Assembly (NCBI RefSeq): GCF_001677475.2
Contig: NZ_CP015229.1
Length of the DNA stretch: 64,000 nt
From: Escherichia coli
Lineage (GTDB): Bacteria; Pseudomonadota; Gammaproteobacteria; Enterobacterales; Enterobacteriaceae
Strand: one strand, 5' to 3'
The notes beneath the pieces are model-generated. The model saw only the letters and a list, made by a program, of their open reading frames with translations, made no database searches and was not told the DNA's origin. The position numbers and the translations under genes were made by a program. This document shows, one piece after another, positions 1,083 through 28,221 of the stretch; within the stretch, counting starts at the first letter, position 1; each line of letters starts with the position of its first letter.

Positions 1083-3179
1083 TTACTCAATGCGTACAAA
1101 AAGACCGATATAGCCACGCGTTGTATCGTGACTAATGCGGGTCCCCGAAAGCGCCGTGTAACGACCGGGGAAGTTGTATTCACCAGCACCGCCAATCACA
1201 ACCTGCGGTGAGGATGCGTATGTCCCTGTATCGCTAACCCGTGCACTCATAGCCAGAGGGCCAAGACGGGAACCCGGCACAATATCACCGAGCCCCAGAG
1301 ACGCATCTGCACCAAAACTCTCCCCCTGATATGCCGCCATAATCGGCACACCAACGGCCGGGTATTTATAATATGAGCCTGAGCCCGCCATCCTGGACAG
1401 CAGGTACGCCAGTGAATCTCCGTCGTATACAACTACCCGCGATGACATGTTCCAGCTGTTATCGCTGTCGTTGTACCGGTACTGCATATAGTGAATACAG
1501 TGTTCACCCTGATAATACTGGTTGTAGCACATCAGGGTTTTAAATTTGCGGACTGTGTCGGATTCACTGTTGGCGTACGGTGACCACATCACATCAATAA
1601 TGCCGTTAAATTGCGTGGTACCGGTAAGCAGTTGCGAGGAGTCTGTAATACTGACCGCATACCGCCCCGGCGTGACTTTCTTCAACCACTCAACGAAATC
1701 AGACAGCCCCTCAAACGCCAGAGCGTCAGTGCTGGTGAATGCCTGTCCAAACCCATACATCCCGGACAGGGCCAGCCTGCCCGGTGTGCGGTCACGGATA
1801 TCACTCTGGGGTTCCATCGTCGCAGCCGCGTTCAGCTCAAGCTCCGTGCGCATGGCTTCAGCCGTGTCATGCGCCAGTAATGCGCGGCCCTTCTCTGACA
1901 GCAGAGACAGTGAGGCATTCCCGTCTGTATTGAAGTACAGAAGATTATCTGCCCGTTGCGTCAGTGCGCTGATTGCCGTTAAGACGTCATTAAGCGGTTG
2001 TTTGCCTGCCAGCGCGTTTGTGATTGTCGTCGCAAAGTTCGGGTCATTGCCCAGCGCCGCTGCCAGCTCGTTCAGGGTGTCCAGAACTTCCGGCGATGAG
2101 CCAACCAGCGCAGCAAGCAGTTTGCGCACAAACGCTGCGTTCGCTGCTTCCAGACCGGCGGCATCATCCGGTGGGGTTGGGGTGGTTGGGGTGCCGGTGA
2201 AGGCCGGACTGTCCAGTGGCGCTTTTGTTTTCGCCTCGTCCATGACGTCTTTGACAGCCTTTGGCGTGGCAGCCAGTTCCTCGCTGTCGTTGTCCGTATC
2301 ACTACAGAGTTGCACCAGACCTTTTTCTGTCGTGGAGGCATTTGTTGCATTCAGGTCATCAACTATCTGCTGCGCCTCATCCCTGTACTGTTTCGCTTCC
2401 TGCGCATTGTCTGCACCTGCATCCTGGCTGGCTTTAGCCTGTCGGGCGTATTCGGCGGCACTGTTTTTGTGCCCCAGCGCCGCATTTGCCGACAGTTCTG
2501 AACTGGTCGCTGCTGATGATGCGGCATTATGATAAAGGCGGGCGCGTTCGGCGGCATCGACTGATTCGTCCCGCGCTGTGCCTGATGACTGTGCGCTGTT
2601 TTCTGCCTCACCCGCAAAACGTTCCGCATCATCACGGGCCGTTGCGGTTGTCGTCACATCCTGTGCCGTCTGCTGTGCGTTTCCGGCTGCAGCTTCGGCG
2701 CTCTGCTGTGTCTGATTTTTTAGCTCTTCTGCCTCATCCTTACTAACCGCCGCAGATGTTGCTGCATTGATTGCATCATCAGCAGCTGTTTCTGCTCTCT
2801 CCCTGTCACTGACCACCTGCTCAGACAAGCGAACAACGGTATTTACCATTTCCTCAAAACGCTTCATTACCTCAGGGCGTAAATCACCCTCCTTTGGTGC
2901 ATCCAGAAAAGCATTCAGCGTATCCGGCTCATCTGTCGGTGCAACATAAATTTCCCCCGCCTTTACAGGAGGATGCCCTGAGCGGGACAAAAATACATCA
3001 TAAAATCCCGGCTCAGCATTAATAGTATACCCGCCATCACTTCCCGTAAGACAGGTTGCCACAATATTAACCACAACTGTCGGACTGGTTCTTCTGGCTC
3101 GCAATTCAATCGCACAGTTTACGACAGGCTCACCCGCTCCGTCCTTCAGGACACCTGAAATCTTTACTGCCATATTCAC
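1083..3179 (-). CDS. stf: Side tail fiber protein (Stf-like)
   Basis: 698-aa ORF between lom and tfa; Ala/Gln-rich coiled shaft and C-terminal receptor-binding region. Confidence 0.8.
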   Translation of the reverse strand: MNMAVKISGVLKDGAGEPVVNCAIELRARRTSPTVVVNIVATCLTGSDGGYTINAEPGFYDVFLSRSGHPPVKAGEIYVAPTDEPDTLNAFLDAPKEGDLRPEVMKRFEEMVNTVVRLSEQVVSDRERAETAADDAINAATSAAVSKDEAEELKNQTQQSAEAAAGNAQQTAQDVTTTATARDDAERFAGEAENSAQSSGTARDESVDAAERARLYHNAASSAATSSELSANAALGHKNSAAEYARQAKASQDAGADNAQEAKQYRDEAQQIVDDLNATNASTTEKGLVQLCSDTDNDSEELAATPKAVKDVMDEAKTKAPLDSPAFTGTPTTPTPPDDAAGLEAANAAFVRKLLAALVGSSPEVLDTLNELAAALGNDPNFATTITNALAGKQPLNDVLTAISALTQRADNLLYFNTDGNASLSLLSEKGRALLAHDTAEAMRTELELNAAATMEPQSDIRDRTPGRLALSGMYGFGQAFTSTDALAFEGLSDFVEWLKKVTPGRYAVSITDSSQLLTGTTQFNGIIDVMWSPYANSESDTVRKFKTLMCYNQYYQGEHCIHYMQYRYNDSDNSWNMSSRVVVYDGDSLAYLLSRMAGSGSYYKYPAVGVPIMAAYQGESFGADASLGLGDIVPGSRLGPLAMSARVSDTGTYASSPQVVIGGAGEYNFPGRYTALSGTRISHDTTRGYIGLFVRIE

Positions 3180-3238
3180 CCCACAAAAAAGCCCGCCTGA
3201 ACCCGGCGGGCTGTCATAACACTGTGTTACCTGGCTAA

Positions 3239-3838
3239 TCAGAACTTATAACCGACACCCACGATGAAACCGTCAGTGCGCCAGTCGCCACTGCCGGAGC
3301 CTTCATAAGCAATATCAATAGCCACGGATTCGGTCGGGTTAAACTGCACGCCAGCTCCCCACGCCAGAGACGTGTTGCTGTGGCGACCGTCATCACTTCC
3401 GGTCAGCACATCGTGCGTTTTCCCCTTATTGTCAGTTACGCGGAGATAATCCCCGGAGAAAGTCGACACACGGCTGTAAGCCACACCCGCCATCGCATAC
3501 GCGCTGAACCATTCATTCACGCGCACAGACGGCCCCGCCATTACGCTGAACCAGCGGTTACGAACGGAATCTTCATGCCAGCGGGTATCGCTGTAACGGG
3601 TCAGCTGGCGATTCTTGTCTCCTGCATAGCTGAATGACGTCACCATACCCAGTGTGTCCGTAAACTCATAACGGTATTTCACGTTAATCCCGTTCAGATC
3701 ATCGCTGCCGGGAACGTTCGTCGAGACATGAAGATACCCCGCGCTCAGCGTGGACTGATGTTCAGACGCCCATGCAGGCGCACCGGATAAGGCCAGACAA
3801 ATGGCTGCGGACAAAATGGCGGCATAAAGTTTACGCAT
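3239..3838 (-). CDS. lom: Outer membrane beta-barrel protein Lom (Ail/Lom family)
   Basis: 199 aa, signal peptide (AAICLALSGAPAWA), C-terminal ...GYKF, located right after J as in lambda. Confidence 0.85.
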   Translation of the reverse strand: MRKLYAAILSAAICLALSGAPAWASEHQSTLSAGYLHVSTNVPGSDDLNGINVKYRYEFTDTLGMVTSFSYAGDKNRQLTRYSDTRWHEDSVRNRWFSVMAGPSVRVNEWFSAYAMAGVAYSRVSTFSGDYLRVTDNKGKTHDVLTGSDDGRHSNTSLAWGAGVQFNPTESVAIDIAYEGSGSGDWRTDGFIVGVGYKF

Positions 3839-23767: not shown

Positions 23768-24301
23768 TTATCTGTCGATACCCCAGCACGCCAGCGCACT
23801 TTCCTGATCTCGCCGGGATACCTGACCGTAGCAATTATTTGAGCGGATACGGCAATCTCTGCCACCGTCCTTAATCCACCAGCGAATCGCTTCGCAGGCA
23901 CCTTTTCGATCACCTGCATTAATTCGTTTATAAAACGTCGACGGGAAACACTTACCGGGGCCAATGTTATACGGGCAGAATGACGCGATCCCCGCTTTCT
24001 GGGGTTCGGTCAGCGGCACTTTGATGTTTTTCTCCACCCATGCCAGCGCCTTGTCACGTTCGATGGCGTTAACCCGGTCGCATTTTTCCTTTGACAGCTT
24101 CATGCCAGGAATAACAGGCTTACCATCCACCAGAATGGCACCACGGCAGATGGTCCAGATCCCCGCACCATCACGGTATGCCGTGGTGTGGTTACCTTCC
24201 TTTTCATCCAGAAACTGGTCGAGGATTTCAGGCGCAGGCGCACCTGCGGCAATCAGCGCCAGAACGGCAGCCGACAGACCGTATTTGATTTTGGTGTTCA
24301 T
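23768..24301 (-). CDS. R: SAR-type endolysin (lysozyme R21-like)
   Basis: 177 aa; weakly hydrophobic Gly/Ala-rich N-terminal SAR segment (GLSAAVLALIAAGAPA) then lysozyme-like body. Confidence 0.8.
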   Translation of the reverse strand: MNTKIKYGLSAAVLALIAAGAPAPEILDQFLDEKEGNHTTAYRDGAGIWTICRGAILVDGKPVIPGMKLSKEKCDRVNAIERDKALAWVEKNIKVPLTEPQKAGIASFCPYNIGPGKCFPSTFYKRINAGDRKGACEAIRWWIKDGGRDCRIRSNNCYGQVSRRDQESALACWGIDR

Positions 24302-24429
24302 GGATATTTATCAGGATTTATCGGTTCCGAATCCCTGGATATGTTAATTCTTCAGCCCGCCAGTGGTGGGCACTGGTGTTTTACCTGATGGCTGAAATAT
24401 ATCTGACAATTCCCGTCGAGGATTTAGCA

Positions 24430-24744
24430 ATGTATAACGATGAACATAAATATACCGCCTGCATGCAGGCCATGAATGAACAATTTAAATCAGCATTCCT
24501 TAAACTCATTCAGCAAAACCACGAAGCAGTAAAATCCATTCAGGCTGAACCGTATGGACACCTCACACCACCAACTCTCGACATTATGTCCAGAATATTA
24601 ACACCAGCCATGCTTCTACGTCTGAAAGACAATATAAATGACTGGTTAAACGAAGAATTAAACTACCTTGAATGTGAGTGGGATCATCATTACGCCAAAT
24701 CACAAAAAGAACGCATCTTCCGTCGATTATCCGGCAACAGATAA
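24430..24744 (+). CDS. Hypothetical protein (alternative start 24376)
   Basis: 104-aa ORF MYNDEHKYTACMQAMNEQ... convergent with the gene below; no recognised motif. Confidence 0.4.
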   Translation: MYNDEHKYTACMQAMNEQFKSAFLKLIQQNHEAVKSIQAEPYGHLTPPTLDIMSRILTPAMLLRLKDNINDWLNEELNYLECEWDHHYAKSQKERIFRRLSGNR

Positions 24745-24753
24745 CGAGCCAGC

Positions 24754-25395
24754 TTATATACGTCCTTTAAGATAAGTCAGTCCTGGATGAAACCAGTAAG
24801 CCGGCACTTTTTTAAAGGGTGAATTATCAAAATCACGAAGAAGAGCCTCCCGCACAACTGCATCCTTGTCCGCACCACTGGCCAGCGCTTCAATCTCAGC
24901 AGCTACCTGCAGATATCCCATGCAACGACCAACGCGCTTCATTAGTCCCTGCTTTTTATTGTTCTTCAGGTAATCAATGGCAAATTCAATGAGCGCCTCA
25001 CTGTGCTGGTGCGATGCTGGTGTTACTTTTCCATCTTCACGGATCGTGATATTCCAGTCATCGCTTGTCACAATAAAAGATGGCCGATTATCCCCCCATT
25101 CCTGGTCTTTATCCGGTGCAGACGCAATAAAATAACGTTTATTGCCTTCCTCTCCGGCACTTTTAACTGTAATGGAGTACTTTTCTGACAATGCGGTCGG
25201 TAAAAACTTTTCCTGCAAAATCTTCGCAAAGGTCCTGCGAGCAATTTTGATGCAATCATCGTAAAACGCTGCTTCCTGCTCATCGCGGCGTTTTTTTTCA
25301 TCTTCAGAAACCATCAGCACCGACAGTTTTTTATTCAGTTCAGTGATTTCATTTTCCAGGCAACTTATGCGCTGATTCATTTCTTCATGGTTCAT
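24754..25395 (-). CDS. Hypothetical coiled-coil protein translationally coupled to the holin
   Basis: 213 aa; N-terminal coiled coil (ISCLENEITELNKKL...); its start codon overlaps the holin stop by 1 nt (ATGA). Confidence 0.5.
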   Translation of the reverse strand: MNHEEMNQRISCLENEITELNKKLSVLMVSEDEKKRRDEQEAAFYDDCIKIARRTFAKILQEKFLPTALSEKYSITVKSAGEEGNKRYFIASAPDKDQEWGDNRPSFIVTSDDWNITIREDGKVTPASHQHSEALIEFAIDYLKNNKKQGLMKRVGRCMGYLQVAAEIEALASGADKDAVVREALLRDFDNSPFKKVPAYWFHPGLTYLKGRI

Positions 25396-25398
25396 CGT

Positions 25399-25614
25399 CT
25401 ACTCTCCCCGCGCCGCCTTACGCCGGTCTTCTTTAATTTTGAAATACAGGTTCGTCAGGTACGTCAGCAGACCAAACAGCAGACTCCCCAGCACGCCTAT
25501 TGCCACCCACTGGGACGGAGAGACTTTGTCCAGCAGCTGCAGTAACCAGTATCCCGTCCCCACCGCTGACGTGGTGTATGACACACCTGTTGTGATTTTT
25601 TCCATCTGGTACAT
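25399..25614 (-). CDS. S: Pinholin S (S21-like) with dual-start motif
   Basis: [71 protein letters not shown] resembles phage 21 S; two Met starts 3 codons apart. Confidence 0.85.
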
Positions 25615-25786: not shown

Positions 25787-26122
25787 ATGAAGTGGATTGT
25801 GATTGACACAGTTATCCAGCCATCATGTGGAATATCTTTTTCAGCCATATGGAGTAAAATAAAATTAATAATCTGGTATCAATCGGATGTTTTCTTACCT
25901 CCTGAAAGTATATTTACGCTGACTCACACAGGTATCGTACTCAATAACAAAGTGCTACCTGTAACCATTTACAACGTTGTACCATTCAATAAAAGATTCT
26001 GGGATTTAATCAAAAACAGCCAAGAATGCCCTGCAAATTCAGATAACGTATTTAATGAATGCTTTAATAACCGTTGCATTCTGCAAATATGCCCCTACGG
26101 GCTAAAACGACACAGGCCATAA
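25787..26122 (+). CDS. Hypothetical Cys-rich protein in low-GC DNA
   Basis: 111-aa ORF with SD AAGGAAA, opposite strand to late operon, C-terminal [25 protein letters not shown]. Confidence 0.45.
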
Positions 26123-26383
26123 TAAGTTTACGCATGTCTGATAGAATCTGTAGAACCTGTTTATATAAAAAGCCCCTCAGGAGAGGGGCATGCTTGCATG
26201 GTGCCGGGTGCCTCCCGATGAATTCAGTATCAGTACCCGAATCAGCATAATAAAGGAGCAGAACAGAAACATACATCACTCATATGCCCACCACCCGGGG
26301 GGATCCACCATGCAAATTTTTTCTAACAAAAGCTCCGTCAACCAGCAATGCCCAATCAACTTAATTGTGATGGATTTAACATT

Positions 26384-26548
26384 TCACGTCTGTGTATTTT
26401 TTACACTCTTCAGCAAAGGCAACACCATTATCACCATCCCCGCCACCAGCACACCATCTGCCAGTACCGACATCAGCCGTCCGGTGAAATCCACTGCCAC
26501 TACCAGAAACAGCAGGATGGCAGCCAGCACAAGGCGCGCACTTTTCAC
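26384..26548 (-). CDS. Putative 54-aa two-TM membrane peptide, GTG start overlapping preceding stop
   Basis: VKSARLVLAAILLFLVVAVDFTGRLMSVLADGVLVAGMVIMVLPLLKSVKNTQT; GTGA overlap with upstream gene. Confidence 0.4.
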   Translation of the reverse strand: MKSARLVLAAILLFLVVAVDFTGRLMSVLADGVLVAGMVIMVLPLLKSVKNTQT

Positions 26549-26970
26549 AGGTACTGCTCCAGTGGTAGCTGCAGCGCCTGAGCAATTTTCTTGAGCTGTG
26601 CTTCTTCATCCGGACCAATACCATCCTGGTCAGCGATATCCAGACACAGGCACAGCACATTAACTGCGTCATCAGTACCTGCAATATCAGCCAGCTGGCG
26701 GAGGGCTTCGGCATTGGCAGAACGCGGCGATGCTTCATAACGGGCGCGGATATTTGCACTCATTTGTGCAATCTCACCCGAGAACGGCGCAAAGGCAGGA
26801 AGTGCTGCAATGGTTTTCTCCAGTACCGCGATTTCTTTCGCGTCACAGGTGCCGTCAGCATATGCAATGGAATACGCACCCCAGACGGTCGCCTCCACTG
26901 CATCGCGATTCTCCATCTTCTTCACTTCGGTAATGGCCTTGCGTGTTTTCTTTTTGAAAATACCAAACAT
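26545..26970 (-). CDS. TerB-like (tellurite-resistance TerB / DjlA N-domain-like) protein
   Basis: 141 aa, two helical half-repeats each with a DG...E...L signature (AYADGTCDAKEIAVLEK ; IADQDGIGPDEEAQLKKIAQALQL). Confidence 0.45.
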   Translation of the reverse strand: MFGIFKKKTRKAITEVKKMENRDAVEATVWGAYSIAYADGTCDAKEIAVLEKTIAALPAFAPFSGEIAQMSANIRARYEASPRSANAEALRQLADIAGTDDAVNVLCLCLDIADQDGIGPDEEAQLKKIAQALQLPLEQYL

Positions 26971-27180: not shown

Positions 27181-27723
27181 CTATCTTCGGCAGAGATGCT
27201 TTGCCAAATTCACATCATTCATCGACATTAAAATACTGTCTTTGATGAACTCGCATACCTCGTTAATTTTTGCATCGGTATCTACGTGCGAAAATGTTCT
27301 GTCCCCATAACCATTAACTGAAATCGTCAGGTTATCGCCATCAAGCAGCACAATCTTTACACCAACTTCCACACTTGCAGACTGGCGGGGATTGTCATCA
27401 ACAACTGTGTATAAATTAAACGCAACTCCGTCCCTAAGGTCTACCTGCAAATCCTCCGGTCGGACACTGAAGCCATTGAGGCAAATATAGACGTAAGGAT
27501 GTAACTCACCCTCAATGTCTCGCCATTGCAGTTCCGGCAACGCCAGTGAAGACTCATAGGCATTGACCAGCCTTGTGGCTGTATCCCGCAACCGCTGAAT
27601 GTATTCCTGCTTAGCTTTCAGTATTTCGGCCCGTTTTGCCCTGATATCAGCATAAGTGACCACTGTATCAATCCTCTTATGAACAAATAAACAAGCCATC
27701 ATAATAACCGCCAGGGTATACAT
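27181..27723 (-). CDS. Hypothetical N-terminally membrane-anchored protein
   Basis: 180 aa, MYTLAVIMMACLFV anchor then coiled region and beta-rich C-terminus; no recognised family. Confidence 0.45.
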   Translation of the reverse strand: MYTLAVIMMACLFVHKRIDTVVTYADIRAKRAEILKAKQEYIQRLRDTATRLVNAYESSLALPELQWRDIEGELHPYVYICLNGFSVRPEDLQVDLRDGVAFNLYTVVDDNPRQSASVEVGVKIVLLDGDNLTISVNGYGDRTFSHVDTDAKINEVCEFIKDSILMSMNDVNLAKHLCRR

Positions 27724-28067: not shown

Positions 28068-28142
<75 letters not shown>

Positions 28143-28145
28143 ATA

Positions 28146-28221
<76 letters not shown>

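Follow-up and report, generated by a model that had tools for sequence, protein, structure and literature searches.

A headless YdfR-family gene and a convergent small gene between the holin and endolysin genes of an Escherichia coli prophage

The DNA considered here, called the window below, is a stretch of 64,000 nucleotides from Escherichia coli contig NZ_CP015229.1 that includes the lysis genes of a prophage, all of them on the minus strand. Two further genes lie between the gene for the holin, which we take to be a pinholin from its likeness to the S21 family, and the gene for the endolysin. One is a late-strand gene for a protein of 213 amino acids (aa), and the other, on the opposite strand, encodes a protein of 104 aa. 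Judged by its sequence, the 213-aa protein belongs to the modular YdfR family but is "headless", without the DUF1327 domain. The new points are modest: the headless architecture, an invariant and orphan C-terminal domain (C-domain), a one-way pairing of the 104-aa gene with that domain across two genera, and a conserved hairpin. The split arrangement already occurs in published phage genomes, and both protein families were already catalogued.

An interrupted lysis cassette

The holin stop codon and the endolysin start are 1097 bp apart, in line with an earlier note on this DNA that had placed the two genes about 1.1 kb apart with two extra genes between them; both open reading frames (ORFs) are confirmed (Table 1). 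That note also had the inserted genes as convergent, and they do lie on opposite strands, with 9 bp between their stop codons and room for no terminator. A protein 100% identical to the holin, in locus L004, is named "class II holin family protein" by the Prokaryotic Genome Annotation Pipeline (PGAP). The endolysin is probably of the signal-anchor-release (SAR) type, given its sequence and what is known of R21 and P1 Lyz, and an Rz/Rz1-like pair lies downstream of it. In the PHROG scan, lysis families are matched by the holin and the endolysin only, and by neither inserted protein.

An ATGA overlap of the 213-aa gene with the holin stop codon had been proposed, but the junction reads GGGGAGAG-TAG-ACG-ATG, with a 3-nt spacer between the stop and the ATG. 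The Shine-Dalgarno (SD) sequence of the 213-aa gene, GGGGAGAG at 25402-25409, lies inside the last codons of the holin gene. Among the relatives inspected, the spacer from the holin stop to the next start is 3-4 nt in 10/10, and an overlap is found in 0/10. The layout supports the view that the 213-aa gene would be translated directly behind the holin.

The holin (S) and endolysin (R) genes were also said to be normally adjacent. This is true of most deposited Stx2a phages of the 933W/Sakai type and of 37/51 phage records, including the VT2-Sakai, P13374 and TL-2011c types, but not of the remaining 14/51, in which an insert splits the pair; the 51 were drawn at even spacing from the phage records with matches to S and R alike. 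Inserts in the split records measure roughly 0.3-1.2 kb and typically hold a DUF1327 gene, in some cases together with a DUF1823 gene on the opposite strand. Nor is the present arrangement unusual, since it is already found in the Shiga toxin (Stx) phages Stx2 phage 86 and Stx2_12E129, and insert-like DNA occurs in 956/5426 complete E. coli genomes. The split cassette is a common alternative rather than an anomaly, though adjacency holds in the majority.

Protein families, architecture and selection

Neither inserted protein had been credited with a recognizable motif. This stands for Pfam, which matches neither, but each protein falls into a family of unknown function that has been catalogued. 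The 213-aa protein matches phrog_1085 (E=1.8e-100; residues 1-213 align with positions 117-296 of a 296-position profile), and the 104-aa protein matches phrog_1853 (E=1.5e-45; residues 1-103 align with positions 57-158 of a 159-position profile). In the Pfam scan, PF07041 (DUF1327) and any other match are absent from the 213-aa protein, a tblastn search with a DUF1327 query finds no match within the window, and neither NCBIfam nor PADLOC matches either protein.

The kinship of the 213-aa protein is modular. Over its last 147 residues the protein shares 80% identity with the C-terminal part of gp05 of Stx2 phage 86 (BLASTP E=6e-90), a protein of 268 aa annotated "YdfR family protein"; over its first 60, it shares 61% identity with the C-terminal tail of a DUF1327 protein of 169 aa (BLASTP E=8e-21). 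A database search returned 151 relatives, many of which are 268-333 aa long with an N-terminal PF07041 domain and many of which cover 99% of the query. In the family alignment (A1), the modules come in the order DUF1327 head, PEKRP... linker, coiled coil, "SITVKSAGEEG" segment and C-domain. The head, the linker and the segment are optional, whereas the C-domain, about 115 aa long, is present in all members. The 213-aa protein consists of the coiled coil, the segment and the C-domain, with the head absent. The comparison with ydfR that the earlier note had proposed is therefore apt, given that long YdfR-family proteins of the same slot have this coiled coil and C-terminal domain in common with it. 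The description of the whole 213-aa product as a coiled-coil protein applies to its N terminus and not to the remainder. There, hydrophobic residues occupy heptad a/d positions (M6, I10, L13, I17, L20, L24 and L27), and the full-length AlphaFold2 model places helices at residues 3-27 and 31-64, with a predicted local distance difference test score (pLDDT) of about 80 at the start.

In-frame deletions at the N terminus have arisen several times independently in the family, and all of them retain the same start context. The 130-aa form of the family has eight N-terminal residues fused directly to the C-domain, and remote relatives of the C-domain mostly carry a DUF1327-like N domain. Because the in-frame truncations all retain the C-domain, it is marked as the selected core of the family. 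Its motifs are GRCMGxLQxAAEIE and DFDNPPFK...W..PG..YLK.RI.

The C-domain was also modeled on its own. The AlphaFold2 model of the full 213 aa, built with 17 sequences, was poor overall (pLDDT 48) and was left out of the fold search. For the C-domain, 12 diverse sequences were used, including remote relatives from an exhaustive profile search, and the resulting model (pLDDT 88, predicted template modeling score 0.80) is a three-strand beta-meander with four helices. Foldseek of this model against AFDB50 returned members of its own family alone, from E. coli, Shigella and Salmonella, and the fold search against BFVD gave no match. With no match outside its own family, the modeled C-domain is a fold orphan. 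Profile searches of PDB sequences with both families gave nothing below E=0.09. The homology and structure searches that the earlier note had suggested as a check thus lead to families of unknown function and to no fold outside the protein's own family.

Both proteins are predicted to be soluble. The highest 19-residue Kyte-Doolittle window averages 0.75 for the 213-aa protein and 0.94 for the 104-aa protein, such that a transmembrane segment is found in neither, and both are hydrophilic overall with isoelectric points of about 6.2-6.5 (6.2 for the 213-aa protein).

The family of the 104-aa protein comprises 36 clusters in a collection of 5.8 billion proteins, each of them labeled "hypothetical" and drawn from E. 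coli or Salmonella enterica. Homologues extend down to 23-43% identity, and the relatives in loci L005 and L015 also match phrog_1853. Pfam has no match to the 104-aa protein or to any member of its alignment, each searched separately. The gene is full length in all 94 of the 5426 complete E. coli genomes that have it; among deposited phage genomes, the family occurs in Stx2 phage 86 and Stx2_12E129 only, in the same position. The possibility that the small opposite-strand genes of the slot form one superfamily was rejected, given that hhalign shows no relation of the 104-aa family to DUF1823 or DUF1883 (probability below 1%).

The start of the small gene has been placed differently by different readers. 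The position 24376 of the earlier note corresponds to a GTG-extended form of the ORF, and in the identical locus of E. coli 09-00049 PGAP chose the ATG at 24388 (118 aa) rather than that at 24430. In alleles of the phage 86 type, the 118-aa extension runs into a stop codon before the conserved SD and ATG, so the 104-aa start is the conserved one. Its SD sequence, GAGGA, lies 7 nt 5' of the ATG and is kept in the Salmonella relatives. A short upstream frame (MAEIYLTI...) recurs in the aligned E. coli alleles, and in Salmonella there is a different frame, initiated at ATG-GCT-GA (MADCFW...). The short reading frame upstream of the 104-aa gene might be an upstream ORF.

Both ORFs are real genes under purifying selection. 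Pairwise ratios of nonsynonymous to synonymous substitution rates are 0.24-0.56 for the 104-aa gene (seven alleles) and 0.13-0.40 for the C-domain (nine alleles), and neither alignment has indels. This selection counts strongly against the view that the 213-aa ORF is a truncated, decaying relic of ydfR and the 104-aa ORF a chance antisense frame. The loss of the DUF1327 domain would suit such a relic, as would the pseudogene labels that PGAP gives to some relatives, one frameshifted relative and one interrupted copy. Those labels, however, are an annotation artefact that hides the C-terminal domain in RefSeq genomes: PGAP calls long YdfR-family genes pseudogenes ("incomplete; missing C-terminus") over the DUF1327 part alone, where the ORFs are intact at 268-330 aa (Table 1). 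In addition, the 104-aa gene is truncated in none of the 94 genomes, Salmonella homologues are retained with a conserved SD and start, and the C-domain is predicted to fold confidently. A decaying remnant is therefore very improbable and largely refuted.

Two damaged copies were recorded. In E. coli GB089 (H31, NZ_CP013663.1 1493454-1495324), a 99.7%-identical copy of the module is broken by IS1. At L015 1964-2634, a relative of the 213-aa gene is frameshifted and the adjoining gene of the 104-aa family (47% identical) is intact. These are cases of occasional decay in a generally intact family.

Table 1. Coordinates of the inserted genes, their modules and associated features; positions refer to the window unless a locus is given.
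Feature	Position	Strand	Basis
Presumed S21-type (class II) pinholin gene, 71 aa, dual-start motif M1/M4 (MYQMEK)	25399-25614	-	ORF; PHROGs phrog_9876 and phrog_20
213-aa late-strand gene, "headless" YdfR-family protein (phrog_1085)	24754-25395	-	ORF; PHROG match; junction sequence
Module 1, predicted N-terminal helical/leucine-zipper coiled coil, residues 1-64	25204-25395	-	61% identity to tail of 169-aa DUF1327 protein; helices; heptads
Module 2, optional linker segment "YSITVKSAGEEGNKRYFIASAPDKD", residues 65-98	25102-25203	-	Alignment A1; class counts
Module 3, conserved C-terminal domain, residues 99-213	24757-25101	-	Alignments A1 and A4; AlphaFold2 model; substitution-rate ratios
104-aa convergent gene (phrog_1853)	24430-24744	+	ORF; PHROG match
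Conserved hairpin/palindrome CGCCAGTG-GTGGG-CACTGGTG, then TTTT	24358-24378	+	About 50 nt 5' of 104-aa start
Conserved linker, endolysin start codon to hairpin	24302-24357		93% mean column identity in alignment A3
Endolysin (lysozyme) gene; Gly/Ala-rich, weakly hydrophobic N-terminal segment; E-x8-D-x5-T motif	23768-24301	-	ORF; phrog_7 endolysin; PGAP "lysozyme"
Hairpin in other loci	L003 2659-2677; L005 2764-2785; L144 3927-3948
Intact ORFs despite PGAP pseudogene label	L011 2325-3131 (268 aa); L012 2322-3314 (330 aa); L014 about 2500-3390 (296 aa)

Pairing, position and possible function

The 104-aa gene is tied to the C-domain in one direction. In 43/43 IMG/VR loci with the 104-aa family, an adjacent and convergent C-domain gene is present wherever the contig reaches far enough, and in about 55 informative loci in all the 104-aa gene always converges on a C-domain gene. 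The pairing extends to the distant loci L005, L007, L015, L141, L142/143 and L144, where the 104-aa family is 23-47% identical. Taken from the other side, the 80 IMG/VR loci with the closest C-domain genes (L059-L138) have the 104-aa gene in 21 cases and lack it in 59; loci without it include Stx2_95 and a prophage of ST131. The 104-aa gene is thus present in some and absent from others of otherwise collinear phages, a polymorphism expected of a moron. Within this unbiased set of 80, the gene is found in 21/27 loci whose C-domain protein has the "SITVKSAGEEGNKRYFIASAPDKD" ("SITVKSAGEEG") segment and in 0/53 without it, although L009, L012 and L013, from another sample, have the gene without the segment. 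The association may hint at where the partner acts, or it may reflect shared ancestry.

In loci of the Salmonella type, the pair is found between the gene for the Q antiterminator and a holin gene of the PF16080 family, sometimes one or two small genes away from that holin, and not between holin and endolysin. Locus L005 likewise has the pair in the Q-to-holin interval. In L139, L140 and L142-L144, the space between the Q antiterminator gene and the YdfR-family/104-aa module is taken directly by a HicA/HicB toxin-antitoxin pair. From this context, the Q-to-holin interval may be a hotspot for cargo in Salmonella-type prophages too.

A role in lysis timing had been deduced in the earlier note from the position behind the holin gene. 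The same pair lies upstream of a different holin family in the Salmonella-type prophages. Because the pairing is kept despite relocation and deep divergence while the position behind S is not, that position is no basis for a lysis-timing role. Such a role might still be framed as follows: a cytoplasmic 213-aa protein, made in fixed ratio with the pinholin, would bind the charged C-terminal tail of the holin or tune triggering or the release of the SAR endolysin, with the 104-aa protein as modulator. This would account for a start 3-4 nt past the holin stop in every E. coli variant, for the SD inside the holin gene, and for the presence of the module within a few genes of the holin-endolysin cassette, in the late operon, at every locus examined in both genera. 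A K-12 ydfR mutant from an envelope-integrity screen, mentioned by citation in PMC13232886, also fits. The coupling to S, however, is not conserved in the Salmonella-type loci, any insert is missing from most related phages that have this S and R, and the N-terminal modules vary freely. Furthermore, the proteins have no transmembrane segment, whereas known antiholins and releasins are membrane proteins. Regulation of lysis timing is therefore unlikely, even if it is the most plausible of the rival explanations, ahead of a toxin-antidote or defense pair and, last, a remnant.

The region 5' of the 104-aa gene is conserved along with the pair. The hairpin (Table 1) occurs once in the window, and its consensus across loci is CGCCAGTG-N5-6-CACTGG(C/T)G followed by a short T run. 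It is kept between E. coli and Salmonella loci even though the adjoining protein is about 40-45% identical, and it is also found 5' of the DUF1823 gene, which is unrelated to phrog_1853. Likewise, the linker between the endolysin start codon and the hairpin is common to phages that have the DUF1823 gene in the slot. Every change in the stem affects one side and would leave a G·U pair on the plus strand alone, which suggests an RNA element in the sense orientation of the small gene; a covariation check found no compensatory double changes. The hairpin could be a stability or regulatory element of a 5' untranslated region, a weak terminator, or a protein-binding palindrome. No Rfam family matches within the slot, and a scan of the window and of L144 found no sigma-70 consensus promoter 5' of the 104-aa gene.

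The earlier note had also suggested an anti-defense role or a lysis-linked toxin. The conserved pairing across genera might instead reflect a toxin and its antidote, or a defense pair, in which a late C-domain protein is toxic or acts as an effector of abortive infection or superinfection exclusion and a lysogen-expressed 104-aa protein neutralizes it. The opposite-strand placement of the partner, like that of lysogen-expressed morons such as lambda bor, and the HicAB genes in the same interval of Salmonella-type prophages, which suggest a hotspot for accessory cargo, are in keeping with this view. An obligatory antidote is hard to reconcile with the majority of C-domain genes that are intact without the partner. 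The two genes are convergent and not co-transcribed, the scan detected no promoter for the partner, PADLOC has no model that fits either protein, and neither has sequence or fold similarity to any toxin or nuclease. A toxin-antidote or defense pair is accordingly improbable.

The reading favored here, with moderate confidence, is that the two genes form a recurrent, dispensable accessory module in the late operon of enterobacterial lambdoid prophages and not part of the lysis machinery, that the 213-aa protein is cytoplasmic with a strictly associated but separately encoded partner, and that RNA metabolism or takeover is a likelier sphere of action than envelope disruption. The 213-aa protein would be a late product of the Q-antiterminated operon, translated by ribosomes that re-initiate behind the holin gene, and would act in the cytoplasm; the DUF1327 domain has been lost, and the translation start behind the holin stop has been kept. 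In K-12 YdfR, residues 1-72 bind both RNase G and the catalytic N-terminal half of RNase E, and RNA co-purifies with the protein (PMC13232886). Combined deficiency of RNase E and RNase G delays lysis and lowers the yield of Stx2 phage (PMC8443680). Since the C-domain is fused in the long forms to the RNase E/G-binding DUF1327 domain, the most likely role of the 213-aa protein would be to modulate host or phage RNA metabolism, or else to serve another function in late takeover of the host; by the logic of domain fusion the C-domain probably works in the same pathway as DUF1327. The coiled coil would provide oligomerization, and the 104-aa protein would be a separately transcribed, moron-like partner that regulates or antagonizes the C-domain protein. 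That partner is optional because most C-domain genes are without it, and the module as a whole is judged dispensable for this reason and because most of the related phages sampled have no insert. Deletion of either gene should then leave lysis possible.

Several points weigh against this interpretation. No function is assigned to the C-domain or the 104-aa protein by any experiment or annotated homologue, and Pfam, NCBIfam, PADLOC, PDB sequences and the fold libraries yield no function-giving match; searches of the literature on DUF1327, ydfR and genes inside lysis cassettes likewise turned up no functional study of the C-domain or of the 104-aa family. The link to RNase E is indirect, given that the 213-aa protein lacks the sole domain that has functional data. 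Strict pairing could come from tight physical linkage, across only 9 bp, instead of from function, and the prophage collections behind the locus counts are redundant, so that the counts lack phylogenetic independence. Because the scan turned up no sigma-70 consensus promoter for the 104-aa gene, its independent expression is unproven. Finally, a lysis role would also fit a module that is beside the lysis cassette in the late operon in every locus seen.

A more far-reaching proposal is speculative and doubtful. In it, the genes would make up an undescribed two-component phage system with orphan folds that extends from E. coli to Salmonella. A late-expressed C-domain effector would be brought to RNase E/G by the DUF1327 head in the long forms, or through coiled-coil association in the headless ones, and would reprogram host RNA decay; expression of the late genes, and with it lysis and the release of toxin, would be set in this way. 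The 104-aa protein, transcribed separately and controlled by its 5' hairpin, would restrain the effector in the lysogen.

If the module does act on late expression or lysis timing, phage yield would be affected, and in the Stx phages that carry it (phage 86 and Stx2_12E129) so would toxin release. In any case, the YdfR/DUF1327 family is defined more clearly, with an invariant C-terminal domain and exchangeable N-terminal heads, and a testable link is offered to the recent finding that YdfR binds RNase E/G.

Surrounding genes and known systems

Other genes of the late region were noted in the window. Immediately upstream of the holin gene, an opposite-strand gene for a 111-aa protein (25787-26122, plus strand) is annotated "anti-adapter protein IraM" in the near-identical prophage of E. 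coli 09-00049; the IraM-like gene is another moron-like gene of the late region. Between it and the DUF3927 and TerB genes, the minus strand at 26167-26342 strongly matches the small RNA STnc100 (Rfam RF02076, E=7.5e-20, 93.7 bits), and a hairpin resembling a terminator lies at 26189-26172. Also on the minus strand, at 26384-26970 and 27181-27723, are genes for a DUF3927 protein, a TerB-family protein (tellurite-resistance-like) and a hypothetical protein of 180 aa. These three genes sit between Q and the holin, where Stx phages carry stx or nanS. Upstream of the late genes, the prophage carries genes for tRNA-Gly(TCC) and tRNA-Thr(TGT) at 28068-28142 and 28146-28221, both on the minus strand.

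Among known systems, the closest are the long YdfR-family proteins, such as phage 86 gp05 and the 287-333-aa forms of E. coli. They occupy the same slot behind a class II holin, with the same start context, and share the coiled-coil, linker and C-terminal modules; the 287-296-aa forms are 60-65% identical over 99% of the query. They differ in having the DUF1327/PF07041 domain that the 213-aa protein is without. YdfR of the K-12 prophage Qin (103 aa, DUF1327 only) is found in the same slot, between essQ and rrrQ, and is related via the long fusion proteins. It has no domain in common with the 213-aa protein, and its RNase-binding domain is the very part that is missing here.

For the small gene, the nearest counterparts are orf6/gp06 of Stx2 phage 86 and BCI50506 of Stx2_12E129 (104 aa, phrog_1853), which are 67-68% identical and hold the same convergent position between the YdfR-family gene and R. 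They represent a different allele of the 104-aa gene and are annotated merely as hypothetical proteins. The DUF1823 genes of PhiR12-type phages and the DUF1883 gene of a Salmonella-type locus are also small, opposite-strand and variably present genes of the slot that converge on a YdfR-family gene. The DUF1823 gene has the same conserved linker and hairpin upstream, but homology of either family to that of the 104-aa protein was not detected.

Among morons on the opposite strand of the lysis region, the classic case is lambda bor, which encodes an outer-membrane lipoprotein. The 104-aa gene resembles bor as a small gene on the opposite strand, but its product is predicted to be soluble, unlike the lipoprotein Bor. 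Accessory lysis regulators inside cassettes include the P1 antiholin LydB, P2 LysA and LysB, and the Mu releasin gp25, all of which are expressed late and are membrane-associated. Their genes are likewise interleaved with those for holin and endolysin, and it is by their membrane association that they differ from the pair described here.

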